The position numbers were made by a program, and so were the translations under genes. A stretch of 64,000 bases of DNA from Thermoanaerobaculia bacterium (GTDB taxonomy: Bacteria > Acidobacteriota > Thermoanaerobaculia > Multivoradales > Multivoraceae), in contig OY762911.1 in the NCBI GenBank assembly GCA_963666565.1, positions 4,224,001 through 4,288,000 on the forward strand, given 5' to 3'. The notes below the pieces were generated by a model. That model did no database searches and was not told the origin of the DNA. It saw nothing but the letters and a program-made list of their open reading frames with translations. Shown here one piece after another: positions 31,736 to 61,001 of this stretch (its first letter is position 1; each line of letters begins with the position of its first letter).

Positions 31736-32284
31736 TCAGGAACCGACCGGCGCCACCTGCCAGCTCGCCGTCGTCTCGATGCGGCAGGCCAGGAAGCGCG
31801 TGGCGTCTATCTCGATCTCGGCGTCCACCGTCGCGCTGTCCTTGGCATCGAACGTGCCGGTGATCACCGCCCGGATCAGGCCGTCCTGGTCGACCCGGAC
31901 GTCGTTCGGCGTGCGGAACCGGAACCCGGCGTCGCGGATCCGGACGTTCGCGTTGGAGTTCCCGAACCTGGTGAAGGCGTTGACCAGTTGGGCGCATGCC
32001 TCGGGCTGGCCCACGGCCGCGTCCGCGAGCTGCGGCAGGTTGACGAGGAAGGCGGCGAGAGTCACGTCGTCGTCGTCCCGTTCGAGGATGAAACGGAACT
32101 CCTCTCCCTGCGGCCCCGTGCCCGCCCACTCGCCGAGAGTGAAGACGACAAGCTCGACGCCCAGGAGGTCGCCGCGGTTGTCGCAGCCGCCCAGCGACAG
32201 AAGCAGAAGCGACGCGGCCAGGAGAACCGCCGGCCGGCGGAGGCGGCGTGCGGGCCGGGTCGGCGGAGAATCGGAAGCGGTCAT
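31736..32284 (-). CDS. Hypothetical lipoprotein
   Basis: Basic N-region, hydrophobic stretch, lipobox-like LGGC; co-oriented with the operon. Confidence 0.65.
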   Translation of the reverse strand: MTASDSPPTRPARRLRRPAVLLAASLLLLSLGGCDNRGDLLGVELVVFTLGEWAGTGPQGEEFRFILERDDDDVTLAAFLVNLPQLADAAVGQPEACAQLVNAFTRFGNSNANVRIRDAGFRFRTPNDVRVDQDGLIRAVITGTFDAKDSATVDAEIEIDATRFLACRIETTASWQVAPVGS

Positions 32285-32310
32285 CGGGCGAAGGCGGGAT
32301 CGGGGTTCAC
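32281..32310 (-). other. 9-codon relay mini-ORF (MNPDPAFAR)
   Basis: GTG at 32310 overlaps the symporter stop (GTGA). Its TGA at 32283-32281 overlaps the lipoprotein ATG at 32284 (ATGA). Confidence 0.4.
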
Positions 32311-33791
32311 CCTATCGCAGCGCCCCGCGTCCCCCGCCGCCGCGCCGCCAGCAGGCCGACCGCGAAGATCGTGAGCGTACCGATGACGGTGATCATGTAG
32401 CTGTGCAGCGGAATGCGCAGCATCGCGAGGCCGCCGTCGAGCCGCGGCGACAGGGTCATCCAGACGATGACCAGCACGCCCACGGCCACCCCCGCCTGGG
32501 CCGCGCCGCGGCCGGCGCGGGGCGCCAGCCGGTCGAGCGCGAACAGGCCGAGCAAGCCGCCGGCGAAGATGCCGGACACCGTCCACCAGACGTCGAGCAG
32601 GCTGCCCGCGCCGATCATCAGCAGCGCCGCGCCCGTGCCGAGCACGCCGATGACGACCGTGGACCGCCGCAGCACGCGCAGATCCTCGGCCTCGCCGCCG
32701 TCGGCGCCCCGATCGGGCTGGACGTAGGTGCGGTAGATGTCCGACAGGAAGACGGTGGCCGAGCTGTTGAGCGAGGTGTCGATGCTGCTCATGGCGGCCG
32801 CGAACAGCGCCGCGATCAGCAACCCCGCGGCGCCGGCCGGCAGCCGGGTCGAGATGTAGTGCGGAAAGGCCTGGTCGGCGGCAAGGCCGGCCGCCTCCGG
32901 CTGGCCCTGGAGAACGACGAACAGCCCGGTGCCGACGAAGAAGAACACGGCCGACACCGGCAGGTAGAGGCCGGCCGCCAGCCACACGGAGCGCGACGCG
33001 GCGCGGTCGCCGTTGGCCGCGTGGTAGCGCTGAACGTAGCTCTGGTCGATGCCGAAGTTGTTGAAGTTGATGAACAGGCCGTAGACCAGGACGACCCAGA
33101 AGGTCGAGGTCGTGAAGTCGAGGGAGAAGCTGCCGAGGGAGAACTTCTCCGCCGCCCCGGCCGTCTCGACCAGCCCGCCGAAGCCGCCCGGCGCGTCGAC
33201 GATCAGGAGCCCGACGACGAACAGCGCGCCGACCGTCAGCACGACGCTCTGGATCACGTCGGTCCAGATGACCGCCTCGATGCCGCCGACGAGCGTGTAG
33301 ACGGTGACGACGACGCCCGTGACCAGGACGATCCAGGCCACCGGCCAGCCGGTCAGCGCGTTCATCGCCAGCGCGACGCCGAAGAGGATGGAGCCGACCC
33401 GCGCGAACTGGGTCAGCAGGTAGCAGGCGACGGCGTAGGTCCGCGCCCAGCGGCCGAACCGGGCTTCGAGGTGGTGGTAGGCCGAGACGGCGCCGCCCCG
33501 CCGGTAGAACGGAACCCACCAGCGGGCCGCCAGGAACGCCGCCACAGGCAGGGACAGCGAGAAGACGAAGGCGTTCCAGTTGCCGCCGTACGCCTGTCCG
33601 GGCACGCCGATGAACGTGTTGCTGGAGAGGAACGTGCCGAACATCGACATGCCGACCGCCCAGCCGGGCAGCGCGCCGCCGGCGACCATGAAGCCGCGCG
33701 CCGTCCCGCTCCGTTTGGCCAGCGAGAGGCCGAGGGCGACGACCGCCAGGAGGTAGGCGGCGAAGACGACGAGATCGAGGCCGGCGGTCAC
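32307..33791 (-). CDS. Sodium:solute symporter (SSS family, possibly sialic-acid/sugar transporter)
   Basis: Multi-TM protein with LPGWAVGMSMFGTFLSSNTF.G.PG, GG.EAVIWTDVIQ, DQSYVQRY and AAAMSS.DTSLNS. GTG start overlaps the sialidase stop. Confidence 0.9.
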   Translation of the reverse strand: MTAGLDLVVFAAYLLAVVALGLSLAKRSGTARGFMVAGGALPGWAVGMSMFGTFLSSNTFIGVPGQAYGGNWNAFVFSLSLPVAAFLAARWWVPFYRRGGAVSAYHHLEARFGRWARTYAVACYLLTQFARVGSILFGVALAMNALTGWPVAWIVLVTGVVVTVYTLVGGIEAVIWTDVIQSVVLTVGALFVVGLLIVDAPGGFGGLVETAGAAEKFSLGSFSLDFTTSTFWVVLVYGLFINFNNFGIDQSYVQRYHAANGDRAASRSVWLAAGLYLPVSAVFFFVGTGLFVVLQGQPEAAGLAADQAFPHYISTRLPAGAAGLLIAALFAAAMSSIDTSLNSSATVFLSDIYRTYVQPDRGADGGEAEDLRVLRRSTVVIGVLGTGAALLMIGAGSLLDVWWTVSGIFAGGLLGLFALDRLAPRAGRGAAQAGVAVGVLVIVWMTLSPRLDGGLAMLRIPLHSYMITVIGTLTIFAVGLLAARRRGTRGAAIG

Positions 33792-39572: not shown

Positions 39573-40528
39573 CGAAAGACGCGGCCGGCGCCCCGCGCGT
39601 GGCGCTCCAGCTCTACACGCTCCGCCGGCAGGCCGAGCAGGACCTGGAAGCCGCCCTCGACCGGGCGGCGGAGGCCGGCTATCGCGAAGTCGAGTGGTTC
39701 GGGGGTCTGTGGGGACGCACGGCCGAGGACCTCCGCGGGCTTCTGTCGGAACGCGGCCTCGGGATCCTCGCGGCCCACGTGCCGCTCGCCGACCTGGAGG
39801 CGGATCCCGCCGGAGCGATGGAGACCTGGCGCGCGCTCCACTGCCAGGTGCTCGTCTGCCCGTGGCTCGACGAAGCCCAGCGCGGCGACGGCAGCCGCGC
39901 GCACTACCTGGAACTCGGCCGTCGGCTCGACCTGCTGAGCTACCGGTTCCGGGCCGGCGGCTTCCGCTTCGCCTACCACAACCACGACTTCGAGTTGCTG
40001 CCGTTCCACGACGTTCAACCCGCAAGCGGACCGTCTTCGACCGGGGAGCGACGACGCCGGGCGGAATGCACGGCCGCTCGAACGCAGCGCGACTTCCGCC
40101 ACGGGCCGCCAGGCCGCGACGGCCTGCGAGCGCTCGTCTCCCGCCGCTCTCACGACGGCTGGGGACTGGAACTGGACATCTACTGGGCGGCCTTCGCCGG
40201 CGCCGACCCGGAGGCGCTGATCCGGGAACTCGGGGACCGGGTCCATCTCCTGCACCTGAAGGACGGCCTGCTGCCCGGTCCGCCGGAGGAACGCGCGGCG
40301 GAGCGGGCCACGTCCGAGCGCTGGTTCCGGCCACTGGGCAACGGCGACGTCGACGTGGCCGCCTGCGTCGACGCGGCGCTCGAGACCGGCGTGCGCCTGT
40401 TCGTCGTCGAGCAGGACGAGACGGCGGAAGCCGGCGGAGCGGCCGAGCGGGACTCGGCCGCGAGCCTCGGATACCTCAAGACGCGGACGGCTCTTGGCGC
40501 CGCCGCGGGCAAGGCTTCCGCGCCATGA
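39569..40528 (+). CDS. Sugar phosphate isomerase/epimerase (xylose-isomerase-like TIM barrel)
   Basis: ALQLYTLR, GYREVE, YHNHDFE, ELDIYW, LHLKD, VVEQD. TTG start overlaps the upstream stop. Confidence 0.85.
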   Translation: MTKDAAGAPRVALQLYTLRRQAEQDLEAALDRAAEAGYREVEWFGGLWGRTAEDLRGLLSERGLGILAAHVPLADLEADPAGAMETWRALHCQVLVCPWLDEAQRGDGSRAHYLELGRRLDLLSYRFRAGGFRFAYHNHDFELLPFHDVQPASGPSSTGERRRRAECTAARTQRDFRHGPPGRDGLRALVSRRSHDGWGLELDIYWAAFAGADPEALIRELGDRVHLLHLKDGLLPGPPEERAAERATSERWFRPLGNGDVDVAACVDAALETGVRLFVVEQDETAEAGGAAERDSAASLGYLKTRTALGAAAGKASAP

Positions 40529-40599
40529 GCCGGGGCCTGTCCAGGCTCGACGCGGCGACCGCGATCGGTACGGCAGCGGCGGGGAACCACGCGCCATGA
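40525..40599 (+). other. 24-codon relay mini-ORF duplicating the start of the downstream gene
   Basis: ATGA overlaps at both ends; MSRGLSRLDAATAIG versus downstream MTWGLSGLDTAIV. Confidence 0.45.
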
Positions 40600-42179
40600 C
40601 CTGGGGCCTCTCCGGGCTCGATACCGCGATCGTCCTCGTCTACCTGGCGGGGATACTGGTCATCGGCACCACTTTCAGCCGCTACGTCAAGACCAGTGGC
40701 GACTTCCTGCTCGCCGGCCGCGCCCTGCCCTTCTGGGCGATCGGCATGTCGATCGTGGTCAGCGACATCGGCGCCACGGACTTCATCGCCGTCGCCGGCG
40801 GTACCTACCGCTACGGCCTCGCCCAGGCCAACTTCGACTGGCTCGGCTCGATGCCGGCGCTGCTGATCGCTGCGTTCCTGATCGTCCCGTTCTACTGGCG
40901 CAGCGGCGTCTACACGGTTCCCGAGTTCCTGGGCCGGCGCTACGGCAGCGGCGTGCGCAGCTTCCTCGCTCTGGCCTGGGGCGTCATCCTGGTGCTCAAC
41001 CTCGGGATCATGATCCACGCCACCGCGCTGCTCATGCGCACCGTGCTCGGCTGGGATCCGCAGTTCTCCATCTGGATCACGACCGCGATCGTCGGCATCT
41101 ACACGATCAGCGGCGGGCTGGCCGCGGTCGTGATGACCGACGTGCTGCAACTCATCGTCATGTTCGTGGGCGGCGCGGCCCTGGTCGCGCGGGCCCTCTA
41201 CGAGGTCGGCGGACTGACGGCGCTGCGCGACGGCGTCCTCAACCAGGGCGCCCAGTACGCGGACCACTTCTCGCTCTACCTGCCGCACGACACGGCGACT
41301 CCCTTCCCCTGGACCGGGATCGTTCTGGGGCTCGGGATCGTGCTCTCGGTCGCCTACTACACCGGCAACCAGACGATCGTCCAGCGCGCGCTCGGCGCGC
41401 GCAGCGAGTGGGACGCGAAGGCCGGCGTGCTGCTCGCCGGCTTCCTGAAGCTGTTCATCCCGCTGCTCGTCGCGCTGCCGGGGCTGGCCGCGATCCTGAT
41501 CGTCCCGGACCTGCAGAACGCCGACGAGGCGGTGCCGAGCCTCATCGCCCGGTTGCTGCCGCCGGGATTGCGGGGACTGATGTTCGCTGCCTTCCTGGCG
41601 GCCCTGATGTCGAGCGTCGACTCCAACCTGAACTCGGCGACGACTCTCTGGAGCCGCGACCTGCTCGGCCGCCTGCGACGGCGCCTGGGCCGCGCGGAAC
41701 TCGGGACCGCCGCGGAACTCCGCTTCGGCCGCATCCTGTCCGCCGTGCTGCTGCTGGCGGCCGCGTTCATCGCGCCCGAGATCGAGCAGCGCTTCAGCAA
41801 CATCTACAACGCGATCCAGACCGTCTTCTCCCTGATCCAGGGGCCGACCCTGGCCGTGCTCCTGCTCGGCATCCTCTGGCGCGGAGCGAACCGCTACGGC
41901 GGCGCCGCCGGGCTGGTGTCGGGCGTCGGGTTCTGCCTGCTGCTCAACAGCCCGGCGATGGATGGGCTGTTCTCGTCCGAGGAGCCGTTCCTGTTCGTCG
42001 CCTGGTGGTCGTTCGTCTTCACCCTGGGCGTGACCTGGATCGTCAGCCGGTTGACGCCGCCGGAGCCGCCGGAGCGCCTGCGCGGCCTGGTCTGGGGCGA
42101 GGTGCGGAACGACGGAGCGGTGCAGGCGGCGCTGCGAAGCCGGGTCGCCCAACTGCGGGAGAACGGCAATGAACCGTGA
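40596..42179 (+). CDS. Sodium:solute symporter (SSS family)
   Basis: DFLLAGRALP, TVPEFLGRRYG, GGL.AVV.TD.LQ, NQ.IVQR.L, AALMSS.DS.LNS. Confidence 0.92.
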   Translation: MTWGLSGLDTAIVLVYLAGILVIGTTFSRYVKTSGDFLLAGRALPFWAIGMSIVVSDIGATDFIAVAGGTYRYGLAQANFDWLGSMPALLIAAFLIVPFYWRSGVYTVPEFLGRRYGSGVRSFLALAWGVILVLNLGIMIHATALLMRTVLGWDPQFSIWITTAIVGIYTISGGLAAVVMTDVLQLIVMFVGGAALVARALYEVGGLTALRDGVLNQGAQYADHFSLYLPHDTATPFPWTGIVLGLGIVLSVAYYTGNQTIVQRALGARSEWDAKAGVLLAGFLKLFIPLLVALPGLAAILIVPDLQNADEAVPSLIARLLPPGLRGLMFAAFLAALMSSVDSNLNSATTLWSRDLLGRLRRRLGRAELGTAAELRFGRILSAVLLLAAAFIAPEIEQRFSNIYNAIQTVFSLIQGPTLAVLLLGILWRGANRYGGAAGLVSGVGFCLLLNSPAMDGLFSSEEPFLFVAWWSFVFTLGVTWIVSRLTPPEPPERLRGLVWGEVRNDGAVQAALRSRVAQLRENGNEP

Positions 42180-42263
42180 GGCAGACCGCACCGAACGCTC
42201 GCGTCACCATGCGCGGCTTCGGGCCCGCGTACCGCGTGCCCTCGTCTTCCGGCGCCGAACGCC

Positions 42264-42503
42264 ATGAGAACGATCCTCGAGTTCGTCCTCGGCCCGGTCC
42301 ACGCCGCAATGGGCGCCTTGCCACTGTGGAGCGCTCGCGTCGCCGTCGCCCTGCTGCTCGTTCTGCCGGCGGCGGCAGTCTGGCGGCTCGGCCGCGACTG
42401 GGTGTTCCGCGGCGCACCCGACCGGGCGAGGTGGCGCGACCTGCGGATCTGGGCCGCACTGTTCATCGTGCCCTACCTCCTGATCTACCTGTTGCTTGCC
42501 TGA
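42264..42503 (+). CDS. Small membrane protein
   Basis: 79 aa with two hydrophobic helices; W.DLR.WA...PYL.IY. Confidence 0.65.
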   Translation: MRTILEFVLGPVHAAMGALPLWSARVAVALLLVLPAAAVWRLGRDWVFRGAPDRARWRDLRIWAALFIVPYLLIYLLLA

Positions 42504-42522
42504 CCTGCCGTTCATCGACGCC

Positions 42523-42741
42523 ATGACCTCCGACCACACCGACCGCGACCGTTCCACCGCCCGCATCCTGGGCGTCTTCCTGGCGGTGCTCGCGATCCCG
42601 GTCCTCGTCGGCGCCTTCTCCGCCGCGCAGACGATCGACCTCGCGCTCGGCACCGCCGCCGGTGCCGCTCTCCTGCTGGCCGCCGCCGTCCTGACGATCT
42701 ACGGCAGCCGCGGCCGCCGGAAGCCGCCGGAAGAGCGCTGA
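42523..42741 (+). CDS. Small membrane protein
   Basis: 72 aa with two TM segments and a basic C-tail. Confidence 0.55.
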   Translation: MTSDHTDRDRSTARILGVFLAVLAIPVLVGAFSAAQTIDLALGTAAGAALLLAAAVLTIYGSRGRRKPPEER

Positions 42742-43367
42742 GCGAACCGCCGCAGCCGGCGCCGCCTACGTCCCGCGCAAACGGGGAGGCGGCCCAGACG
42801 ATCGCGCCGACCGTCCCGGAAGACGAAGCGCGCCGCCGCCTGGCAGGCGGACGGCTGCGCCGCCTCCGCGGCGGGCGGCCCGTCGCCTTCGAACTCCTGT
42901 ACCTGCCCCACTGGCTCGTCGTCTACGAGACGGTCGGCTCCGCCGAGCGACTGGCGGTCCTCGTCTGCCGGCTCAGCGGGCAAGCCGCGCACATCCGCCT
43001 GCAAGACGTCGAAGTCGCACCGGGACCGGCAACCCTGCCGCCCGCGCTCGACCCTGCCCAAGCGGAAGAGCGGGCCGCCGACTTCGCCCGCCGCGTCCTG
43101 CTGATGGCCGCCCGCGGCAAACGCCGCCGCGAACTCGGCAAGCCGATCCGCTCCGAACCCTGCGGCTACCCGTACTGGGTCGAGTACCTGGAACGCGGCA
43201 GCAACGTCGACTTTCGCGCCGTCGACGCCGTCTCCGGCAAGCGCGCCGGCGCCGCCGTACGCGGCGCCATCGCCCGCGGGATCGCGGCGGACAACCCGTT
43301 GACCGAAACACGCCACCGACGTCCAGCCCAGTCGGGTCAGGAGGGGTCGGCGCCCAGGCGCCTCTGA
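42738..43367 (+). CDS. Hypothetical protein with probable CTG start
   Basis: The frame is open and protein-like from CTG 42738 (overlaps the upstream TGA), with no ATG/GTG/TTG until 43104. Internal two-fold motif LYLPHW..../GYPYW... and VCRLSG/VDAVSG. Confidence 0.6.
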   Translation: MSEPPQPAPPTSRANGEAAQTIAPTVPEDEARRRLAGGRLRRLRGGRPVAFELLYLPHWLVVYETVGSAERLAVLVCRLSGQAAHIRLQDVEVAPGPATLPPALDPAQAEERAADFARRVLLMAARGKRRRELGKPIRSEPCGYPYWVEYLERGSNVDFRAVDAVSGKRAGAAVRGAIARGIAADNPLTETRHRRPAQSGQEGSAPRRL

Positions 43368-43492
43368 ACGAGCGACGGCCGACGCCTTTCCGGAAGCCGA
43401 CGCTGAACCGGAGCGAGTGAAGCGGAGCGAGCGCAGTCCTTCCATCTCCTCTTGAGCGCGAGCGTCACCTGGGCGCCGACCCCTCCTGACCC
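43334..43492. mobile_element. MITE/REPIN-like element with perfect 25-bp inverted repeats
   Basis: GGGTCAGGAGGGGTCGGCGCCCAGG (43334-43358) and CCTGGGCGCCGACCCCTCCTGACCC (43468-43492). Confidence 0.6.
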
Positions 43493-43563
43493 AAGACGGG
43501 CGGGTGCGTCCGACGCCGCCACGAACGGGGCTAGACTCGGTCTTCCCGACCGAGGAGAACCGA

Positions 43564-44532
43564 ATGGCCGAGGCTTTCGACACGCAGACCTGGATCAGCG
43601 GACCGCTCCGCTCCCCCAGACAGATGCTCGCCGAACAGGAGTACGGCGGACACATGTCCATCCATGACGACTCCACCGCCGAGAAGATGGGCTTCCAGGC
43701 CGGAGGCCCGATCGAAGGCCCGACCCACTTCAGCCAGTTCGTGCCCCTGCTTCACGACCTGTGGGGTCAGGAGTGGTTCGAGACCGGCTGCCTGAGCGCC
43801 CACTACCGGAACATGGTCGTCGAGGGCGAGCAGGTGCGAGCCCTGGTCGAGAGCGCGGCGAACGGCCGGACCCAGGTCCGCATCCGGGCCGAGAAGGCGG
43901 ACGGCACGGAAGTGCTCGTCGGCACGGCCTCGATCCGCGGCGACATCGAGTCGTCCGAGATCGGGACGCGAATGGCCCGCCTGCGGCCGCCGGGACCGCT
44001 CGTCGTCCTGCGGGACCTCGAAGTCGGCATGAAGGGGAAGGGACTCGAAGAGGTGCGGATGGACTTCGACCGGCACATGGGCAAGCTCTATCCCTTCAGC
44101 CTGAACCAGAAGCTCGCCAGGATCACCGAGCCCTCGCCCTGGTACACCGAGGACGAGGGCGGCTCGTCGCCCTGGGGCCGCGCGATCGTCCCGCTGGAGA
44201 TGGTCAGCGTGCTCGCCGGCTACTCGAACCGCAAGGCCGGCTTCCCGACGCGCGGACCGGCGGTGGGCCTGTTCGCCGGCCAGCAGATCCGGATGATCGA
44301 CGGGCCGCTCTTCGTCGGCCGGGACTACCTCCTGGAGCGCGAGATCGTGGCGCTCAGCGAGAGCCGGCGCACGGAATCGAACTGGGTCAGGACGACCTTC
44401 CTCGACGCGGAGACGAAGACGCCGAAGGCCGAGATGATCCTGAACAACGCGACGCTCAAGCACTCATTCGAGGGCTACGAGGAAGAGCGTGCGGCGTTGG
44501 AGGCCGCGGCAGCGAAGGCGGCGACGGCATGA
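43564..44532 (+). CDS. Hypothetical protein, probable double hot-dog fold (acyl dehydratase/thioesterase-like)
   Basis: SIHDD..A...GF..G.IEGP.H and SPWGRAIVP...GLFA...IR...GPL resemble MaoC-like halves. SD GAGGAG; coupled to the CoA ligase. Confidence 0.6.
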   Translation: MAEAFDTQTWISGPLRSPRQMLAEQEYGGHMSIHDDSTAEKMGFQAGGPIEGPTHFSQFVPLLHDLWGQEWFETGCLSAHYRNMVVEGEQVRALVESAANGRTQVRIRAEKADGTEVLVGTASIRGDIESSEIGTRMARLRPPGPLVVLRDLEVGMKGKGLEEVRMDFDRHMGKLYPFSLNQKLARITEPSPWYTEDEGGSSPWGRAIVPLEMVSVLAGYSNRKAGFPTRGPAVGLFAGQQIRMIDGPLFVGRDYLLEREIVALSESRRTESNWVRTTFLDAETKTPKAEMILNNATLKHSFEGYEEERAALEAAAAKAATA

Positions 44533-46283
44533 ACGACATGCGCGAAGCGAAGTCCGAGCCGATCGTCGGCCAGATGACCTACGACGAGTCGGTCGCCTTC
44601 CTGACCGCTCCCGGCGCCGATTGGGAGCTCGTCACCGAGACCGTCCGCGGCGTCGAGTACAAGGTCTTCAGGAACCTGCCCCCGACCCTGCGCGACGTCT
44701 ACGACCAGGCGCGCCAGGACCACGGCGACAAGGACTTCCTCGTCTTCCAGGACACGCGGCTCACCTACGCCGAGGCCTGGGAACGCGCGGCCGCGCTCGC
44801 CCACCAGTTGGTCCACCGCTACGGCGTCAAGAAGGGCGACCGGGTCGCCATCGGCATGAGGAACTACCCCGAGTGGGTCATCGCCTTCATGGCGATCACG
44901 TCCTCCGGCGCCATCTCGGTGTCGCTCAACGGCTGGTGGTCGGGCGAAGAGCTGGAGTACGGCTTCAAGGACTCCGGCGCCAAACTCGCCTTCTTCGACT
45001 GGCAACGCTACGAGCGGGTCGCCGGCAAGCTGCCGGGCCTCGGTGTCAAGAGCATCGGCGCACGTTGGGAAGAGGAGTTGCCCGAGGGCGTGGACGACTT
45101 CGAGGAGGTGTGGCGCGAGGCGGCCGGCCAACCGATGCCCGATGTCGACCTGGGTCCCCACGACGACGTGACGATCCTCTTCACCTCGGGTACCACCGGC
45201 TTCCCCAAGGGCGCCGTCTCCAGCCACCGCGCCGTGCTCAGCGGCATCGGCAGTTGGGGCTACTACGCCGCCCAGCGGATCGCGATGGGCCTGATGGACG
45301 AGCCGGAGGAGGACCCCGAGTTCCAGCCCTCGATCCTGATGCCGCTGCCGCTGTTCCACGTCAGCGGCAGCCACGCCGGCCTGCTCGCCTCCTTCGGCGC
45401 CGGCCGCAAGATCGTGATGATGTACAAGTGGAACCCGGAGCTCGGCCTGGAGCTGATCGAGCGCGAGCGCGTGACCTCCTTCAACGGCGTCCCCACGATG
45501 ACCTGGGAGATGCTCCAGTCGCCGGCGCTCGGCGAACGCGATCTGCGGAGTCTCATCGCCGTGTCCGGCGGCGGCGCGCCGATCCCCGGCGGCATGGTCG
45601 ACCGCCTGCAGGCCCTGATGCCGGACAAGCACTGGTCATTCGGCTGGGGAATGACGGAGACGAACGCCGGCGGCGCCGGCAACACGGACGAGGGCCTGGT
45701 CGAGAAGCCCGACAGTTGCGGTCAGCCCTGCCCGATCGTCGAACTGAAGATCATCGACGACGACGGCGCCGAACTGCCGTCCGGCGAGCAGGGCGAACTG
45801 ATCATGAAGTCGTCGATGAACATCCGCGGCTACTGGAACCGCCCGGAGGCGACCGCCGAGACGATCCAGGACGGCTGGCTGCGCACCGGCGACATCGCCG
45901 AGATCGACGAGGACGGCTTTCTCTACATCCGGGACCGCAAGAAGGACATGGTGCTCCGCGGCGGCGAGAACATCTACTGCGCCGAGATCGAGCGCGTGGT
46001 CTACCAGCATCCCGCCGTCTACGAAGCGGCCGCCTTCGGCGTCCCCGACGAACGGCTGGGCGAGGAGCTGGCGGTCGTCGTGGTGCCGAAGGAAGGCGCC
46101 GAGCTGGACGCGGCGGGCGTTCGCGCCCACGTCGCCGAGCACATGGCCCGATTCAAGGTGCCGCGCTACGTGTGGCTGCAGGACGAGCAGTTGCCCCGCG
46201 GCGCCACCGAGAAGATCCACAAGCGCACCCTGCGCGACCGGATGCTGACGGAAGCGCCGGAGTTTCAGCCGTGCGCCGGATGA
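44529..46283 (+). CDS. Long-chain fatty-acid/acyl-CoA ligase
   Basis: FTSGTTGFPKG, PLFHVSG, GWGMTET, WLRTGD, DMVLRGGENIY. ATGA overlap at the start. Confidence 0.92.
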   Translation: MNDMREAKSEPIVGQMTYDESVAFLTAPGADWELVTETVRGVEYKVFRNLPPTLRDVYDQARQDHGDKDFLVFQDTRLTYAEAWERAAALAHQLVHRYGVKKGDRVAIGMRNYPEWVIAFMAITSSGAISVSLNGWWSGEELEYGFKDSGAKLAFFDWQRYERVAGKLPGLGVKSIGARWEEELPEGVDDFEEVWREAAGQPMPDVDLGPHDDVTILFTSGTTGFPKGAVSSHRAVLSGIGSWGYYAAQRIAMGLMDEPEEDPEFQPSILMPLPLFHVSGSHAGLLASFGAGRKIVMMYKWNPELGLELIERERVTSFNGVPTMTWEMLQSPALGERDLRSLIAVSGGGAPIPGGMVDRLQALMPDKHWSFGWGMTETNAGGAGNTDEGLVEKPDSCGQPCPIVELKIIDDDGAELPSGEQGELIMKSSMNIRGYWNRPEATAETIQDGWLRTGDIAEIDEDGFLYIRDRKKDMVLRGGENIYCAEIERVVYQHPAVYEAAAFGVPDERLGEELAVVVVPKEGAELDAAGVRAHVAEHMARFKVPRYVWLQDEQLPRGATEKIHKRTLRDRMLTEAPEFQPCAG

Positions 46284-46408
46284 CCGACGCACGGCCTGAG
46301 ACGCGGTGGCGCGGAACGCGCCAGCCGGGTAACGCAGCCGTGCGCCGGATGACCGACGCACGGCCTGAGACGCGGTGGCGCGGAACACGCCAGCCGGGTA
46401 GCCAGTGA
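46266..46408 (+). repeat. 69-bp tandem duplication encoding a 42-codon relay mini-ORF (46280-46408)
   Basis: CAGCCGTGCGCCGGATGACCGACGCACGG... at 46266 and 46335; encodes MTDARPETRWRGTRQPG twice; ATGA and GTGA overlaps at the ends. Confidence 0.75.
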
Positions 46409-46881
46409 CCGACGAAGTCCGGATCGAACCCGGCGACCCCGCCGACCCCGCCTTCGTGCGCCTGCACGAGGCGCTCGACCGGGAACTCGGCGAGCTCTAC
46501 CCCGCCGACAGCATCTACAGCGTCGAGCCCGACAAGCTCGACGCCCCCGGCTGCTGCCTCCTCCTCGGCCGGAACGCGGACGGCGAAGCGGTCGCCTGCG
46601 GCGCACTCCGCCAACTCGGCCCCGATCAGGCCGAGATCAAGCGGATGTACGTGGCGCCGGAGTACCGTCGGCAGGCCCTCGGACGCCGCATCCTGGAGGA
46701 ACTCGAAGCCCGAGCGGCGGCCTTCGGCTACAAGTCGCTGCGGCTCGAAACCGGCGAACTCCAGCCCGCCGCGATCGGCCTTTACCGTTCCTTCGGTTAC
46801 GTCCGGATCCCCTGCTACAACGAGTACGCCTACGACCCGCACAGCCTCTGCTTCGAGAAGAAGCTGGAAGCCGGCGGCTAG
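46405..46881 (+). CDS. GNAT family N-acetyltransferase
   Basis: AVACGAL, EIKRMYV.PEYRR..LG, LRLETG..QP.AI.LY.S.GY. Confidence 0.9.
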   Translation: MTDEVRIEPGDPADPAFVRLHEALDRELGELYPADSIYSVEPDKLDAPGCCLLLGRNADGEAVACGALRQLGPDQAEIKRMYVAPEYRRQALGRRILEELEARAAAFGYKSLRLETGELQPAAIGLYRSFGYVRIPCYNEYAYDPHSLCFEKKLEAGG

Positions 46882-46882
46882 G

Positions 46883-46958
46883 CTGGGTGCGCGGGTCTTC
46901 GCCAGGACTGGGTGCGCGGGTCTTCGCCAAGACTGGGTGCGCGGGTCTTCTGACCCGC
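46883..46958 (+). repeat. Tandem REP copies, 25-bp period (two truncated, one full)
   Basis: CTGGGTGCGCGGGTCTTC at 46883, 46908 and 46933. Confidence 0.85.
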
Positions 46959-46991
46959 CCGCGTGCCCGGCCGACGCTAGTATTCGACGCC

Positions 46992-47687: not shown

Positions 47688-49409
47688 ATGGTCCAGATCA
47701 TCGAACGCAAGACCTGGGACGCCATCGTCGTCGGTTCCGGCATCACCGGCGGCTGGGCTGCAAAGGAACTGACCGAGAAGGGCCTGGAGACGCTGGTGCT
47801 CGAGGCCGGCCCGCCGGTGGTCCCCGAGCGGGACTACAGCGAGCACACGCCGCCCTGGCAGATGCCATACCGGGGGCTACGGGATCGCAAGCACCAGGCC
47901 GAGCGGCAGCCGGTTCAGAGCCGCGCCGCCGCCTGCGACGAGTGGTCGGGAAAGTTCTTCGTCGACGACATCGACAACCCGTACTCGATCGGCGACGGCG
48001 GCCAGGAGTTCCTGTGGATCCGCGCCCGCATCGTCGGCGGACGGTCCCTGCTGTGGGGACGCCAGAGCTACCGCTGGAGCGACCTGGACTTCGGCGCCAA
48101 CGCCCGCGACGGTTACGGTACGGACTGGCCGATCCGTTACCGCGACCTCGCGCCGTGGTACGACCGGGTGGAGTCCTTCGTCGGCATCGCAGGCCAGCCG
48201 GAGAACATGCCGCAGCTACCCGACGGGAAGTTCCTGCCGCCGATCGCCCAGAGCTGCATGGAGGAGAAGGTCCGCGAGGGCCTCGACCGCGCCTTCGGCG
48301 GCACGCGCCGGTTCACGCCGGCCCGGGTCGCCGTGCTCACCAAGCACCATCTCGGCCGCCGCGCCTGCCACTACTGCGGCATCTGCCGCCGCGGCTGCAT
48401 CAGCCGGTCCTACTTCTCCAGCCTGAACGCCACGCTGCCGGCGGCCGAGGCGACCGGCCGGCTGACCGTGCGCCCCAACAGCGTCGTCCGCAACCTGGTC
48501 TACGACGAGCGGACGGACCGGGTCAGCGGCGTCCATCTGATCGACGGCGAATCGATGGAGTCGATCGAGGTACGCGGCCGCATCGTCTTCCTGTGCGCGT
48601 CGACGATCGAGTCGGCGCGCATCCTGCTGAACTCGAAGACGCCCCGCTTCGCGGAGGGACTGGCGAACTCCAGCGGCCAGGTCGGCCGCAACCTGATGGA
48701 CCACATCTTCCAGGTCGGCGCGAACGGGAACCTGGACGGCCTGGAGGACAAGACGACCTTCGGCAGGCGCCCCAACTCCTGCTACCTGCCGCGGTTCGTC
48801 AACCTCGACGGTGACCGCGCCGAGGCCACTCGCGAGAAGAGCTTCCTGCGCGGCTTCGGCTACCAGTGCGGCGCCCGCCGCGGGACCCTGTGGCAAGGCG
48901 GCATCGGCCAGCCGGGCTTCGGCGCCGACTACAAGGCGAGCCTGCGCGGGCTCGCGCCCTGGCGTCTCAACTTCAGCGGCTTCGGCGAGAACCTGCCGAA
49001 CCCCGACAACCGGGTGACGATCGACCCGGATCTCGAGGACCGCTGGGGCATTCCCGCGGCCCGGATCACGATGAGCTACGGCGAGAACGAAGAGGCGATG
49101 CGGGAGAGCATCCAGACCCGCGCCGCCGAGATGCTGGAAGCGCTCGGCGCGAAGAACATCCGCACCTTCAACCGGAACTCCCTGCCCGGCTTCGCCATCC
49201 ACGAGATGGGCACGGCGCGAATGGGCCGCAACCCCGCGACCTCCGTCCTCAACGGCTGGTGCCAGTCCTGGGACGTGCCGAACCTGTTCGTCACCGACGG
49301 CGCCGCGATGGCCTCGTCCGCCTGCCAGAACCCGAGCCTGACCTACATGGCGCTCACCGCGCGCGCCTGCGACTACGCGGTGCGCCGGATGCGCCGGCTG
49401 GAACTCTGA
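47688..49409 (+). CDS. GMC family FAD oxidoreductase (glycoside 3-dehydrogenase-like)
   Basis: DAIVVGSGITGGWAAKELTEKGL, GGRSLLWGRQSYRW, C..CG.C.RGC, HEMGTARMG, CQNPSLTYMALTARA. Confidence 0.93.
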   Translation: MVQIIERKTWDAIVVGSGITGGWAAKELTEKGLETLVLEAGPPVVPERDYSEHTPPWQMPYRGLRDRKHQAERQPVQSRAAACDEWSGKFFVDDIDNPYSIGDGGQEFLWIRARIVGGRSLLWGRQSYRWSDLDFGANARDGYGTDWPIRYRDLAPWYDRVESFVGIAGQPENMPQLPDGKFLPPIAQSCMEEKVREGLDRAFGGTRRFTPARVAVLTKHHLGRRACHYCGICRRGCISRSYFSSLNATLPAAEATGRLTVRPNSVVRNLVYDERTDRVSGVHLIDGESMESIEVRGRIVFLCASTIESARILLNSKTPRFAEGLANSSGQVGRNLMDHIFQVGANGNLDGLEDKTTFGRRPNSCYLPRFVNLDGDRAEATREKSFLRGFGYQCGARRGTLWQGGIGQPGFGADYKASLRGLAPWRLNFSGFGENLPNPDNRVTIDPDLEDRWGIPAARITMSYGENEEAMRESIQTRAAEMLEALGAKNIRTFNRNSLPGFAIHEMGTARMGRNPATSVLNGWCQSWDVPNLFVTDGAAMASSACQNPSLTYMALTARACDYAVRRMRRLEL

Positions 49410-49552
49410 TTCGACACGGCACCGCCCGTTCGCCCGCCCAGGCCTCGTCCGCACGCCGATGACGGACACGCGGACGGGTTGACGCACGACGCGCTCAGTA
49501 TCGCCGGGGGATCTATGATTCCGGTGCAATGAACGCGAGAGGAGCAACGCCC

Positions 49553-58075: not shown

Positions 58076-58429
58076 AAGACCACCTCAAGAGCCTGATCCA
58101 GGGGCGCGACCCCCTCCAGGCACGCAACGTGGTCAGGGAGTACTTGCAAGCGCGCGTTCTCCGGTCCATGCAGGGCGCCGGCGCCATGACCGCGTTGGCG
58201 TTCCAGGGCGGCACCTGCCTGCGATTCCTCTACTCGCTTCCCCGACGGACGGCCTCAAGGTACTTCGTCGGATCGTACGCCTCGCGGTTGCCCTCAAGCG
58301 CGAGCGCTGGAAGACGTCCGGCCCTTCCTGGAAGAACAGGACGACGTCGACCTCGTTACACGCAAGAACGCGCTCCGTCTTCTCGACGAACGGAGCCGGG
58401 CGGACCGAGACCGGCCGAGCAGGGCGTGA
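58072..58429 (+). pseudogene. AbiEii nucleotidyltransferase toxin, internally deleted and frameshifted
   Basis: N-terminus REYLQARVL...LAFQGGTCLRFLYSLPR breaks off before the expected S-E-D-L-D motif. A C-terminus-like ALEDVRPFLEEQDDVDLVTRKNALRLL lies in another frame ending at TGA 58429. Confidence 0.75.
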
Positions 58430-58505
58430 ACGAATCCCTGTCCCAGCGGGGCCCGCGCCAAGCGACGGCGCACCAGCTCGAAGCCGGCGCCGCACGAGGC
58501 CGCGG

Positions 58506-58910
58506 CTATGCCCGTGCCAGGCGGCGGCCGTTGCCGCTGCGCGGGCGGCCGCGGCGGCCGACGCCGGAGGTGCGGCTGAGCGGTACCCGGCGGCGGCGGA
58601 GGTGGGCCTGCCGCTTGACGCGGCGGCGGGCGGTCGCGAAGGACTGGTTGATGGCGACCGGAATGGAGGCGGCGGTCGAGCGGTGGACCACCACGTCCGG
58701 GCCGGGCAGCGCGACCTTGACGACGACGTCGAAAGCCAAGCCGCCCCGGTGATGCCGGCCGGGACCGGCCACGGTCACTTCGCAGTCCACGATCCGCGAG
58801 TTGAAGCGCTTCAGGGCCGCCGCCTCGAACTCGATCGACCGCTTCAGGTCGTCGTTCAGTTGGACGTTCCGGGTGCGGATCCTGATCGGGAAGCTCGGAC
58901 TGGTTCTCAA
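58506..58910 (-). CDS. HPF/RaiA family ribosome-associated protein
   Basis: I.I.TRNV......I.....L.RF..RI.DC.V.V....HH..G..F.V...V.LPG....V...AINQSF....R. TTG start with GGAGG SD. Confidence 0.75.
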   Translation of the reverse strand: MRTSPSFPIRIRTRNVQLNDDLKRSIEFEAAALKRFNSRIVDCEVTVAGPGRHHRGGLAFDVVVKVALPGPDVVVHRSTAASIPVAINQSFATARRRVKRQAHLRRRRVPLSRTSGVGRRGRPRSGNGRRLARA

Positions 58911-58984
58911 CGCTGGTGCCCCTCCGCGGTTGACGCCGACATCGTACAACGCGGGTCGCGGAACGGGCCTAACGGCCGGTTTCT

Positions 58985-59027
58985 GGCCGCCTCCGGCGGC
59001 AGCGGGTCAGAGGACCCGCGCACCCAG
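58985..59027 (-). repeat. REP element with second hairpin
   Basis: Reverse complement CTGGGTGCGCGGGTCCTCTGACCCGCTGCCGCCGGAGGCGGCC. Confidence 0.85.
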
Positions 59028-59112
59028 CCGGAACTGCAGGGCGGTTCACACCGGGTGCGCCGGCGTCCCCGCCGGCGTCCGAACAGAACGCGTCGCGGAG
59101 CGGCGACCCGCC

Positions 59113-60135
59113 CTACCCGTCCATCGCCGTGCCGACGGTGCCTCGCAGATAGACGTCGATCAGCCGCGGCAGGGCGTTCAGGTCGTAGCCGCCTTCCAGC
59201 ACCGACACGAGCCGTCCCTCGCAGATCTCTTCCGCCAGTTCGGCGAGCCCGACGCCGAAGCGGTGGAAGGCCCGCTCGGTCAGCTTCATGTCGGCGAGCG
59301 GGTCGTTCCGCCAGGCGTCGAATCCGGCCGACACGAGCAGCACGTCCGGGTCGAACGACCGCACTGCCGGCAGCAGCAGCTCGTCCATCGCCTCGCGGTA
59401 GGCCTCGTCGCCGCTGCCCGCCGGCAGCGGGGCGTTGAACGTCGTTCCCTCGCCCTCGCCAACGCCCCGCTCGTCGGCGGCGCCCGTGCCGGGCCAGAAC
59501 GGGAACTGGTGAACGCTGAGGAAGGCGACGTCGGCCCGGTCGTCGAACAGGTGCTGGGTGCCGTTGCCGTGGTGGACGTCGAAGTCGAGGACCGCCACCC
59601 GCTCGACGCCGTGCACGTCGATCAGGCCCTGCGCCAGGATCGCGACCTGGTTCAGGTAGCAGAAGCCCATCGCACGGTCGCGCTCGCAGTGGTGCCCGGG
59701 CGGCCGGGCGACGCTCATCGCCCGGTGGCCGGCGCCCAGCATCGCGTGGTCGCCGGCCGCCAACGCGGCCTCGACCGCGGCCCAGGCGGCGTCCGCCGTC
59801 CCCGGCGACAGCGGGTTGTCGTCCGTGTCGAGCATCGGCGTCGGGGAGCTCGGGAAGCTCCCCTCAGCCGCCGACGCCGCCACCGAGGCAACGGCGGCCT
59901 CCATCCGCTCGATGTACTCCTGGTCGTGTACCAGCGCGGCGAGCCGGCGCGCCTGCCCGGCCATGCCCCGAACGGTCTCGTCGGCCGCGGCCGCCCCGGC
60001 TTCCACGAGGTCCCAACCCCGCTCTTCGAGGTAGGGCAGAGCGAGCCGCAAGCGCTCCGGCCGTTCGGGAAAGCCCCTCGGCACCGCATGCTCGTCGCAG
60101 CGCGAGTCCCAGAAAACGCTCATTGGTGAGTTCAT
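59113..60135 (-). CDS. Histone deacetylase family protein
   Basis: PERPERL, RPPGHH...AMGFC..N, DFDVHHGNGTQ, HQFPFWPGTG, SAGFDA...DPL, LEGGY. Confidence 0.93.
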   Translation of the reverse strand: MNSPMSVFWDSRCDEHAVPRGFPERPERLRLALPYLEERGWDLVEAGAAAADETVRGMAGQARRLAALVHDQEYIERMEAAVASVAASAAEGSFPSSPTPMLDTDDNPLSPGTADAAWAAVEAALAAGDHAMLGAGHRAMSVARPPGHHCERDRAMGFCYLNQVAILAQGLIDVHGVERVAVLDFDVHHGNGTQHLFDDRADVAFLSVHQFPFWPGTGAADERGVGEGEGTTFNAPLPAGSGDEAYREAMDELLLPAVRSFDPDVLLVSAGFDAWRNDPLADMKLTERAFHRFGVGLAELAEEICEGRLVSVLEGGYDLNALPRLIDVYLRGTVGTAMDG

Positions 60136-60216
60136 CGGCCTCCCCACCGACCTTGCGGACCGAAGTCCGCCTCTGCCCACGATCCTGGTGGCGATCCGCG
60201 GTCAGGATCGAATAGT

Positions 60217-60238
60217 GTACATGTTCATGAACATGAAC
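60217..60238. promoter_or_regulatory. Palindromic operator of the TA module
   Basis: Perfect 16-bp palindrome CATGTTCATGAACATG (60220-60235) over the antitoxin start, next to a TAGTGT -10 box. Confidence 0.65.
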
Positions 60239-60529
60239 CGTCCACTCGTCACGGAACAGTACTCCATCGCCGACGCCCGCCGGAACCTCCCCGGCCTGAT
60301 CCGAAGCGCACAGCACGGAACTGCCGTCGAACTCACGCGCCGCGGCAAACCCGTCGCGGTCCTGATCGGACGGCGGGAGTTCGATCGACTGACCTCGGGC
60401 CGGCGCTCCTTCAGCGAGGCATGGAGCGCCTTCGCGGAGAGCGTGGACCTTGCCGACCTGGCCCTCGACCCCGACGAGTTGCTGGAGGGCGTCCGCGACA
60501 ACAGTCCCGGACGCGACGTCCGCCTGTGA
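60227..60529 (+). CDS. Phd/YefM family antitoxin
   Basis: YSIADARRNLP.LI..A..G..VELTRRGKPVAVL. Start is one of three close ATGs (60221, 60227, 60233). Confidence 0.88.
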   Translation: MNMNRPLVTEQYSIADARRNLPGLIRSAQHGTAVELTRRGKPVAVLIGRREFDRLTSGRRSFSEAWSAFAESVDLADLALDPDELLEGVRDNSPGRDVRL

Positions 60530-60951
60530 GCGCCGCCAGATTCCTGCTCGATACGAACACGGTGTCGGAACCGCTTCGCCCGAGGCCCAACCCGAACGCC
60601 GTCGAGCGGCTGCGCCAGCACGAGGCGGAGGTCGCCATCCCGGCGCCCGTCTGGCACGAGCTCCGGTTCGGTTGCTCCCGGCTCCCGCCGTCGCGGCGCC
60701 GGGACGCCTTCGAGCGCTACCTGGAGGAGATCGTGCTCCTCAGCTTCCCGGTGTTGAACTACGGCAGGAGAGCGGCGGACTGGCACGCTCGCGAACGAGC
60801 CCGGCTGGCCGCCTCTGGCCGAACGCCGCCCTTCGTGGATGGCCAGATCGCGGCCATCGCGCACGTCCGGGGCCTGGTGCTGGTGACCTCGAACATCAGG
60901 GACTTCCGGGCGTTCGAGGGTCTTGAGATGGAAGACTGGCTGGCAGAATGA
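60526..60951 (+). CDS. vapC: VapC family PIN toxin
   Basis: FLLDTN.VSE..RP.PN, EL.FG, DGQIAAIA....L.LVT.N..DF..F.GL..EDW. GTGA overlap. Confidence 0.92.
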   Translation: MSAARFLLDTNTVSEPLRPRPNPNAVERLRQHEAEVAIPAPVWHELRFGCSRLPPSRRRDAFERYLEEIVLLSFPVLNYGRRAADWHARERARLAASGRTPPFVDGQIAAIAHVRGLVLVTSNIRDFRAFEGLEMEDWLAE

Positions 60952-61001
60952 ACCGGCCGCCGGATTCCCCGCAGGCGGCCATTGGAGCGAGCCAATCATG
61001 A
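60948..61001 (+). other. 17-codon relay mini-ORF (MNRPPDSPQAAIGASQS)
   Basis: ATGA overlap with the vapC stop and with ATG 60998. Confidence 0.4.

Follow-up and report, generated by a model that had tools for sequence, protein, structure and literature searches.

Short open reading frames that begin in an NTGA overlap with the stop codon of one gene (A) and end in an NTGA overlap with the start codon of the next (B) raise the question of how such relay mini-ORFs arise between co-directional genes and why they persist. The earlier note on the window (the whole stretch analysed, 64,000 nt) listed several of them and proposed that intergenic insertions are tolerated only if they keep handing the ribosome on, whatever their sequence. 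All nine listed stretches lack internal stops and have the claimed ends when the letters are re-read. Four of them carry an NTGA overlap at both ends and are strict relays exactly as claimed (table below); genome-wide, 69 gene pairs have this arrangement. The stops of A and the starts of B at the four junctions match independent gene calls, and homologues where checkable. The start-to-start distances are indeed 3n+2, but this is a tautology, because an ORF from an NTG start to a TGA stop forces 3n+2. Across Candidatus Multivorans, a genus of sponge-symbiont Acidobacteriota, no relay of the window is conserved. From comparison of the sequences, we read relay mini-ORFs as a mixture of chance coincidences and young junction duplications or repeat insertions, with a probability of about 60%.

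Table. Strict relay mini-ORFs and junction units. Positions are those of the window unless a genome position is given. The boundaries of the 71-nt copies are derived from the sequence and the alignment of the relatives.
Feature	Position	Strand	Description
Strict relay mini-ORF, 9 codons	32281..32310	-	GTGA (SSF-transporter stop)...ATGA (182-aa gene start)
Strict relay mini-ORF, 24 codons	40525..40599	+	ATGA...ATGA
Junction-unit copy 1 (71 nt)	40466..40536	+	A tail, ATGA, 8 nt like B's first codons
Junction-unit copy 2 (71 nt)	40537..40607	+	Second tail copy, ATGA at 40596, B's first four codons
Strict relay mini-ORF, 42 codons	46280..46408	+	ATGA...GTGA; AMP-binding enzyme to GNAT
Strict relay mini-ORF, 17 codons	60948..61001	+	ATGA...ATGA; VapC-like PIN gene to PQQ-propeller gene
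Three 35-nt units, each a 12-codon ATGA-to-ATGA ORF	1783605 of the source genome (G000)

At the 40525 junction, the TGA of gene A (TIM-barrel) overlaps the ATG or GTG of gene B in 11 of 11 relatives, and there is no insertion. The mini-ORF of the window is, by alignment, a diverged second copy of the C-terminal tail of A, read from the duplicated start of B. Its peptide aligns in frame with the A tails of the 11 relatives, and its anchored BLOSUM score against the A tail, 2.0, lies beyond the 99th percentile of null scores. The two NTGA ends of a relay are copies of one ancestral NTGA, without independent selection.

The 46280 mini-ORF spans a dispersed REP-like repeat that forms a hairpin and is inserted in a GTGA junction as two 69-nt copies in tandem (TRF: period 69, 2.0 copies, 95% match). 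The element has 45 BLAST matches in the source genome, about 43 of them outside the two copies of the window, in both orientations and mostly 3' of gene ends; there are many matches in the genus. The predicted fold has an energy of -43.1 kcal/mol (z -4.7), and 0 of 200 shuffled sequences are equally stable. With many copies and a stable hairpin, the element qualifies as a REP/MITE-like dispersed repeat. A target-site duplication is seen by eye only. Among the listed copies, just two are noted in relay configuration, this one and that at 3977189 of the source genome. The closed relay is kept in five of the six genomes with the insertion at this junction, with one, two or three copies. The tandem repeat interrupts the Logan contigs, none of which bridges it. 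A scan of 40400-46500 for sigma-70-like promoters and intrinsic terminators gives no match, which is weak evidence for cotranscription.

The other two strict relays show no such origin. The 32310-32281 relay, flanked by gene calls at 32307-33791 and 31736-32284, is present in 0 of 12 usable relatives, and the second codon of B begins with A in the source genome only. In 9 of the 12 relatives, the start overlapping the stop of A reads 65-83 codons into B. This relay is best read as a chance coincidence. The 60948 junction is shared by a single genome (G042) among 30 relatives, where A ends in TAG without an overlapping start. The mini-ORF peptide has no similarity to the tail of A (anchored BLOSUM score -1.67), and chance is the best reading of this relay, at a junction that an inserted vapBC module would have created. 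The N-terminus of B at 60998 is divergent in relatives, and the junction comparison is informative in G042 only. A GGAG lies 5' of the ATG of B at this junction.

Relays are modestly enriched across the genome. Our census covers co-directional pairs with gaps of 15-150 nt (n = 1054, 414 in relay phase) and uses our own ad hoc gene caller, whose share of TTG starts (435/3556) seems too high. Among phase-matched pairs, a closed relay is found in 69/116 after [AGT]TGA, vs 63/157 after CTGA and 51/141 after TAG or TAA, that is, in 69/116 vs 114/298 controls (Fisher p = 1.1e-4; p = 5e-4 without the pairs of the window itself). Within the relay phase, the counts grade by the end of A from ATGA (24/28) through GTGA (38/59) and TTGA (16/29) to CTGA (74/157), TAG (57/127) and TAA (5/14). 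The chance baseline is about 38%, because at 70% GC the -1 frame after a gene is mostly open and NTGA is the start of some 40% of genes, and the excess comes to about 25 pairs in 4.79 Mb. About half of this excess consists of NTGA/TGATG junctions with a tandem duplication or a REP-like insertion. Evidence of duplication is found in 18 of the 69 relay pairs, vs 1/47, 0/63 and 1/51 in the comparison classes. When pairs with such evidence are removed, an enrichment remains (51/97 vs 113/290, p = 0.024) beyond the detectable duplications. A spacing of -4 is the commonest in the genome (401 of 2493 co-directional pairs). A frameshifted gene A was considered as a general cause and rejected, as the last 60 nt of A are coding in their own frame in relay pairs; a frameshifted gene B would, we reason, reduce the coincidence with the NTGA of B rather than increase it. 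In a second species (G021; 2.4 of 3.73 Mb), the proportions after [AG]TGA and in controls are 20/35 and 54/136, in the same direction but by our estimate not significant alone. No convincing junction duplication is found among 1747 genes of that species, so the phenomenon is lineage-specific and the phase rule is based on one genome.

Several comparisons point to duplication at the junctions. A local alignment score of at least 16 between the junction flanks is reached by 13/78 relay pairs and 16/976 others, and the similarity of the mini-ORF peptide to the A tail is beyond the 95th percentile of null values in 14/53, vs 0/38 and 1/38. We also scan for duplications independently of the start call of B, with matches scored out of 36. 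In 19 scan matches, the second copy of the stop abuts the start of B. In 17 of these 19, the unit length n and the start-stop offset d agree modulo 3, with junction offsets of -5, -1, +2, +3, +4, +5, +7 and +8. The remaining two, a 2x68-nt and a 3x35-nt array, follow the rule in each unit, so that it holds for 19/19 at the level of units. Over all scan matches, 19 are in relay phase, vs about 3 in frame and 0-2 weak ones in the third phase; weak matches (24-25/36) may be chance, the interior null giving 26/~2030 at that level. Among matches with at least 26/36, relay phase is found in 14/16 (about 0.002 by our own binomial estimate at 0.5). Tandem arrays called by TRF behave likewise. The period is 3n+2 in 8/12 junction arrays vs 12/93 elsewhere, the counts by period modulo 3 being [2,2,8] at junctions, [32,1,1] within genes and [19,12,9] between genes. 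All 12 junction arrays lie between co-directional genes.

In this mixture, the excess over chance would come mainly from young, lineage-specific events at places where the stop of A and the start of B overlapped or abutted (NTGA, TGATG and others). A tandem duplication, as of the 71 nt at the 40525 junction, copies the start of B beside the stop of A and the stop of A beside the start of B; insertion of a hairpin repeat, as at the 46280 junction, likewise splits the junction to both flanks of the insert. When unit length and start-stop offset agree modulo 3 (for NTGA and TGATG, a unit of 3n+2), the frame of the orphan start closes at the orphan stop and gives the relay, and nearly all units seen are of this kind. 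A ribosome ending A could then reinitiate at the orphan start, read the mini-ORF, melting the hairpin where there is one, stop on the start of B and reinitiate there. Units in relay phase would persist, and a unit that leads ribosomes into B in another frame, or that extends B, would be lost. The relay would then be a passive tolerance filter and not a conserved device, and may work like the ORFs of mycobacterial MIRUs.

The strongest competitor explains the phase rule without translation. Junction duplications would form by slippage at microhomologies, which, under strong codon periodicity, would be more frequent where the A tail and the B head share their codon phase; this would give n = d (mod 3) as a neutral by-product, and translation of the mini-ORF would be absent or irrelevant. 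At the 401 junctions with -4 spacing, microhomologies of 3-10 nt do favour n = 2 (mod 3), in 39% to 64%. A neutral origin also fits the lack of conservation of the window relays, the persistence of wrong-phase cases (the 88-nt insertion described below and the relatives at the 32310 junction), and the Shine-Dalgarno sequence of B, which is not seen to be weaker in relay pairs (35/69 vs 408/985, p = 0.13). Hexamer coding scores of mini-ORF frames (-0.33) hardly exceed those of controls (-0.5 to -0.85) and are still negative. However, the microhomology-opportunity model predicts relay phase in 39-51%, below the 14/16 observed. Most duplicated units take in only 4-12 nt of B, which leaves little scope for an effect of codon phase, and five of the six relatives bearing the element at the 46280 junction retain the closed relay. 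On balance, a purely neutral origin is possible but unlikely. Because the phase rule exceeds the microhomology model, a translational filter on junction units is plausible. We tentatively suggest, at rather less than even odds, that tandem duplication at junctions is the birth mechanism of MIRU-like relay units, and that the near-absolute modulo-3 rule may be a natural experiment in which serial termination-reinitiation filters insertions in vivo in Acidobacteriota.

The strong form of the earlier proposal, in which relays are a general, selected and sequence-independent bridge and insertions are tolerated only with hand-on of the ribosome, is very unlikely. It draws support from the enrichment with its start-codon gradient, from the phase rule, and from the distance dependence of coupling given in the available text of PMC10666635. 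On the other hand, 985 of the 1054 pairs with gaps of 15-150 nt have no relay, and the words "tolerated only if" are refuted at the 32310, 42177, 42501 and 46281 junctions described below. The ends of relays are copied, not independently evolved, and relays are not conserved. The coupling path is absent at the 46281 junction in 5 of 24 loci, and the overlapping start at the 32310 junction leads into B in most relatives. An 88-nt (3n+1) insertion at the 42177 junction contains the listed ORF 42169..42267 (+), where 19 of 19 relatives have a plain ATGA or GTGA overlap. This ORF starts at an ATG inside A and is not a relay from the stop of A. The start of the ancestral junction, GTG 42176, overlaps the stop of A and reads into B for 116 codons in another frame; the wrong phase is tolerated here. 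The 8-codon case 42500-42526 (+) has the correct B start (42523) but needs a CTG start, and a relay there is unsupported. Among 23 loci including that of the source genome, a GTGA relay is found in one (L090), gene A ends in TAG in 12/23, and the gap at 42501 varies from 18 to 29 nt over six lengths, its phase classes being 15/6/2. The proposed three-step chain 49406>49459>49479>49529 (49406..49532, +) begins with CTG and takes the wrong start for B: the true start is ATG 49553, which has a GGAGAGGAG Shine-Dalgarno sequence, is kept in 20/20 aligned loci and reads ATGC, not NTGA. The start at 49529 is not conserved, and our gene caller also picks 49553. Overall, the ribosome-bridge idea is partly supported, and its strong, sequence-independent form is contradicted.

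An artefact of metagenome assembly or polishing, which would write two strain alleles of a divergent tail in tandem, is more improbable still. The two tail copies at 40466-40607 do look like alleles from two separate clades within the genus, and the source genome has many duplications vs none in G021. However, Logan k-mer contigs of four runs (three samples of one study, one of which may be the source sample of the assembly) cross the duplication, spanning 40000-43343 or 40393-40652, with 0 differences, and none of the Logan joints listed skips the second copy. In addition, an artefact would not follow a reading-frame rule. That the mini-ORFs encode functional small proteins is hardly credible: 21 of the 24 codons of 40525-40599 have G or C as their last base (an eye count), but this usage is inherited from the A tail, and the peptides have neither conservation in relatives nor coding-like composition (mean hexamer score negative).

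The closest known systems are the MIRUs (interspersed repetitive units of mycobacteria), reportedly described by Supply et al. in 1997. The likeness to MIRUs drawn here is one of described architecture, and it crosses phyla, the present units being from Acidobacteriota. In the available text of PMC12548453, the ORFs of MIRUs have -4 coupling and "likely facilitate insertion with minimal impact"; the accessible parts of PMC12548453 and PMC3184786 describe units of 40-100 bp between co-directional genes, often in tandem, and that of PMC4213456 gives unit sizes of 77 bp and 53 bp. The relay units, too, occupy the space between co-directional genes and are often tandem, and their ORF overlaps the stop of A and the start of B with -4 spacing. 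Both 77 and 53 are 3n+2, as are the units here (35, 50, 53, 56, 59, 68, 71, 74, 77, 80 and 95 nt). Filled MIRU sites are flanked by tetranucleotide direct repeats, and the 46280 element has a target-site duplication seen by eye; the published reading is the same, minimal impact as the ORF stays coupled. Unlike MIRUs, the majority of the present units are locus-specific, copying the local gene tail, and do not form a dispersed family at about 40-50 loci; the sole dispersed element, that of the 46280 junction, lies mostly outside junctions. The relay architecture and its interpretation are thus already known from MIRUs, and the origin by junction duplication is possibly new. Our literature search, from whose coverage most subscription journals fall outside, finds no description of locus-specific junction duplications with a frame rule.

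REP elements are reportedly also inserted in or beside genes (Di Nocera et al., 2013). The hairpin repeat at 46280-46408 is similar in being tolerated, putatively, in a translated context with an open frame; it differs in lying between two genes, not inside one, and belongs to another family than the GGGTGCGCGGGTCTTC REP. Ribosome-delivering uORFs of Mycobacterium tuberculosis have reportedly been described by Kipkorir et al. Such uORFs, and the synthetic bicistronic design cited in the available text of PMC12548453, resemble relays in that a short ORF would serve only to place a ribosome on an overlapping start. In contrast, uORFs start de novo in a 5' leader, whereas the relay ORF would be fed by reinitiation at an upstream stop. 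The accessible part of the preprint of D'Halluin et al. (10.1101/2022.06.01.494293) describes M. tuberculosis uORFs that "deliver" ribosomes through NUGA overlaps; the overlaps it gives are purine-initiated, with no CUG starts, which counts against initiation from CTG at 42500.

Termination-reinitiation coupling at NTGA/TGATG overlaps is described in the available texts of Huber et al. 2019 (PMC6728339), Huber et al. 2023 (PMC10666635) and a review (PMC12548453). The same motifs stand at both ends of the mini-ORFs, and -4 spacing is the commonest here too; the difference is that a relay would putatively pass at least two coupling steps in series through a spacer ORF. In the reporter assays given in the accessible part of PMC10666635, a spacer of about 20 nt almost abolished coupling in six gene pairs of E. 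coli and Haloferax volcanii. With coupling lost at such a distance, the survival of operon insertions at overlapping junctions is puzzling, and MIRUs are one anecdotal answer. The source genome adds about 20 independent, locus-specific junction duplications, nearly all under one frame rule, from a phylum without studied translation. If selection causes the rule, it would be a countable, sequence-only signature of reinitiation coupling, applicable to thousands of genomes, and would offer a plausible origin for MIRU-type elements; annotation pipelines should then expect split-looking junctions. If microhomology alone causes it, the case is a caution that frame-respecting patterns can form without translation. 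As a minor observation, Pfam searches with the two giant genes give summed repeat-type matches only, and the single stretch that passes is one fn3.

The source genome (4.786 Mb, one contig, 70.2% GC) yields 3556 genes with a purpose-written caller based on iteratively trained in-frame hexamer log-odds and greedy overlap resolution, with starts refined by start-codon type and Shine-Dalgarno (SD) class. TTG starts (435/3556) are apparently too many, so single start calls may err; stops and frames are robust. The earlier note listed nine stretches of the window as relays or similar cases, relays being mini-ORFs that start in an NTGA overlap with the stop of an upstream gene (A) and end in an NTGA overlap with the start of a co-directional downstream gene (B). 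All nine are stop-free and have beginnings and ends as described. Four are strict relays, with flanking boundaries that agree with the independent gene calls, and the remaining cases fail. The noted 3n+2 regularity is an arithmetic consequence of the definition of such an ORF, and hence no observation.

Relay ORFs, relay chains and palindromic repeats (window positions unless marked G000, the source genome)
Feature	Position	Strand	Description	Basis
Strict relay	32310-32281	-	SSF transporter to 182-aa protein	Pfam, gene calls
Strict relay	40525-40599		xylose-isomerase-like TIM barrel to SSF transporter	Pfam, gene calls
Strict relay	46280-46408		AMP-binding enzyme to GNAT acetyltransferase	Pfam, gene calls
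Strict relay	60948-61001		VapC-like PIN to PQQ-type propeller	Pfam, gene calls
Relay chain	G000 1783605		three successive ATGA to ATGA, 12 codons apiece	ORF tracing
Relay chain	G000 1315883		9 codons, then 25	ORF tracing
Chain	G000 2271702		88-nt units, 11-nt overlap junction	ORF tracing
Palindromic REP family	46882-46960; 29050-29200; G000 391514, 3129141, 703491, 637324

At 40525-40599, the orthologous junction is gapless in 11/11 loci of the genus (Candidatus Multivorans), with gene A open for at least 386 codons in the 11 relatives, into a TGA overlapping the ATG or GTG of B. The mini-ORF peptide aligns in frame with the relatives' A tails. The tail of A in the source genome is itself a second copy that has diverged, and the stretch of 8 nt past the first ATGA is similar to the first codons of B. 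Therefore, the relay is the product of a 71-nt junction duplication. As read from these alignments, the start codon of the ORF is copied from that of B and its stop from that of A. The site is spanned with 0 differences by k-mer contigs of four runs (three samples, one study), indicating that the duplication is no polishing artefact.

The 2493 co-directional neighbours of the genome include 401 with a 4-nt overlap, 59 with a 1-nt overlap and 1054 separated by 15-150 nt, the last with gap mod 3 of 270/414/370 (classes 0/1/2). Relay phase is defined as gap mod 3 = 1. Pairs in which A ends [AGT]TGA and B starts NTGA fall into phases 23/78/33, with an open frame in 69 of the 78. The cleanest control is the base preceding A's TGA, which is invisible to the start caller. 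Among relay-phase pairs, B starts NTGA in 24/28 (ATGA), 38/59 (GTGA) and 16/29 (TTGA), and in 74/157 (CTGA), 57/127 (TAG) and 5/14 (TAA) of the controls. In this genome-wide test, which the earlier note had proposed, closed relays number 69/116 when A ends [AGT]TGA versus 114/298 in controls (odds ratio 2.4, p=1.1e-4), or 65/112 versus 114/297 (p=5e-4) minus the window's own pairs. The control frequency means that the chance baseline is high (38%) and the excess only ~25 pairs. A second species (G021, 2.4 Mb) agrees in direction, weakly ([AG]TGA 20/35, controls 54/136).

Two other phase biases are seen. Positive gaps avoid multiples of 3 in the source genome and also in G021 (130/184/178), possibly because in-frame neighbours cannot ever come from overlapping ancestors. 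Where a gene A ending [AGT]TGA precedes a B that lacks an NTGA start, phase 2 is overrepresented (80/141 in the source genome). This phase places B in the frame of the start codon that overlaps the stop of A, and the surplus probably consists of -4-overlap genes with starts called too far downstream.

Duplication contributes to the relay excess. Junction flanks align at a score of at least 16 in 13/78 relay-class pairs versus 16/976 elsewhere, and A-tail/mini-ORF peptide similarity exceeds the 95th percentile of a permutation null in 14/53 versus 0/38 and 1/38. Without pairs bearing duplication evidence, the enrichment drops to 51/97 versus 113/290 (p=0.024). The ATG>GTG>TTG>CTG gradient is explained, because the codon ending A copies a real start.

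A stop scan, independent of B's start call, compares the 36-nt window round each gene's stop with offsets of 12-260 downstream. It gives 45 matches at 24 or more of 36 identical positions, versus 26 of ~2030 for an interior-of-gene null. In 19 of the 45, the called start of B directly adjoins the second copy of the stop; of these, the second stop is mutated in two, the start is gone from the first copy in one, and two are supported by just 24 matches. The offset between copies (n) equals the start-stop offset at the junction (d) modulo 3 in 17/19, with d values of -5, -1, +2, +3, +4, +5, +7 and +8. The two exceptions are arrays that keep the rule unit by unit, one made of two 68-nt units (n=136) and one of three 35-nt units (n=105). 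About three other matches (n=108, 54, 255) are in-frame duplications within B, and the weak matches at n=184 and n=161 may be due to chance. In an independent TRF run, the 12 arrays across co-directional junctions have period mod 3 of 2/2/8, versus 32/1/1 for intragenic and 19/12/9 for intergenic arrays. In addition, ORF tracing finds true relay chains. No convincing junction duplication is found among 1747 genes of G021 (2.4 Mb), so their abundance is peculiar to the source genome's lineage. Junction duplications number ~20 in the source genome, which also has 105 tandem arrays (non-redundant, period 30-200 nt); this suggests a lineage prone to small tandem duplications compared with G021.

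Selection for the frame rule would have a rationale in published work: in E. coli and Haloferax, coupling by reinitiation was nearly abolished by a spacer of ~20 nt (PMC10666635, abstract). An orphan start left by duplication, with its SD, would otherwise direct ribosomes out of frame over B's start. Mutation bias could favour the same class, since codon periodicity makes A-tail/B-head microhomologies commoner with matching codon phases: in a count of every microhomology of 3-10 nt at the 401 junctions with a -4 overlap, 39% to 64% have n = 2 (mod 3), and 46% of those of 6 nt. However, 14/16 is observed among stop-scan matches with at least 26 identical positions (binomial estimate at p=0.5, ~0.002). 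The observed share tops the microhomology model, but that model is crude; selection is on balance the likelier basis of the frame rule.

The other junctions of the window differ in origin. ORF 46280-46408 spans two tandem 69-nt copies (TRF) of a dispersed repeat with 45 BLAST matches in the genome, in both orientations and mostly downstream of gene ends; its predicted fold is a strong hairpin (-43.1 kcal/mol, z -4.7). Of 24 genus loci, 9 have a plain -4 overlap at this junction, 3 an in-frame start at the stop of A, 7 a relay and 5 no coupling path. Five of the six element-bearing loci (1, 2 or 3 copies) are relays, the best local hint of maintenance, weakened by the probable descent of the six from one shared insertion and by a repeat length that is a multiple of 3.

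The relay at 32310-32281 is found in the source genome alone among 13 usable loci, and a start overlapping A's stop reads 65-83 codons into B in 9/12 relatives. The relay at 60948-61001 sits at a junction made by a vapBC module (60215-60951), whose Phd/YefM and VapC (PIN) toxin-antitoxin genes overlap by 4 nt. The PIN-propeller junction occurs in 1/30 relatives searched (G042), indicating that the module is an insertion; in G042, A ends TAG without an overlapping start. The downstream B gene has its own GGAG.

Stretch 42169-42267 lies in an 88-nt insertion (3n+1) at a junction where 19/19 informative relatives have a plain overlap, and the ancestral start, now GTG 42176, reads 116 codons into B. 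This is a counter-example to the claim that insertions are tolerated only if they hand the ribosome on. Overall, the observation in the earlier note is partly confirmed, and its interpretation is refuted in the strong form and partly supported in a weak form, as a filter. At the orthologue of 42177-42264, two relatives' loci (G042, G023) carry three hairpin-like inverted repeats in an insertion of ~150 nt, making this a recurrent insertion spot.

Two further listed cases are unsupported. The relay at 42500-42526 requires a CTG start, and over 23 loci the gap phase classes are 15/6/2 and A ends TAG in 12. For the chain that leads to 49529, the start assigned to B is wrong: 20/20 loci keep ATG 49553, which has a strong SD. 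A motif containing TATGAT (~49500-49510), ~50 nt 5' of this MBL-fold gene start, is conserved in 20/20 aligned genus loci; it is possibly a -10 element, which would give the gene its own promoter.

The idea of a ribosome-relaying insert is a rediscovery, having been published for mycobacterial interspersed repetitive units (MIRUs). An excerpt of PMC12548453, citing Supply et al. 1997, states that a coupled repeat-unit ORF 'likely facilitates insertion ... with minimal impact'. MIRUs are described as 40-100 bp, with ~40-50 copies, 4-nt direct repeats and ORFs overlapping neighbouring genes at both ends (PMC3184786, excerpt), with 77- and 53-bp units, each 3n+2 (PMC4213456, excerpt). The excerpted preprint 10.1101/2022.06.01.494293 reports M. 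tuberculosis uORFs with NUGA overlaps, CUG starts being absent. In the limited literature searched, we found neither locus-specific junction duplication as a source of such units, nor n = d (mod 3) as a general rule for different types of junction, nor relay units or the rule for Acidobacteriota.

Other features were also observed. A palindromic REP family (core GGGTGCGCGGGTCTTC, then a partial complement of the core; often in tandem) gives hundreds of BLAST matches in the genome (374 and 779 for two query stretches), and the TGA stop codon of several genes lies in its loop. A MITE-like repeat of ~205 nt with terminal inverted repeats (43314-43520) has 53 BLAST matches, identity up to 94%, and contig depth 5- to 25-fold above its flanks (four runs). 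Positions 1-29050 hold three successive giant genes (3170+, 4530 and 3104 aa as called; GC 0.66-0.69), with AT skew mostly ~+0.3 to +0.42 as far as ~24 kb; Pfam gives one fn3 and otherwise summed repeat-type matches only, and the products are probably proteins of repetitive sequence, either secreted or at the cell surface.
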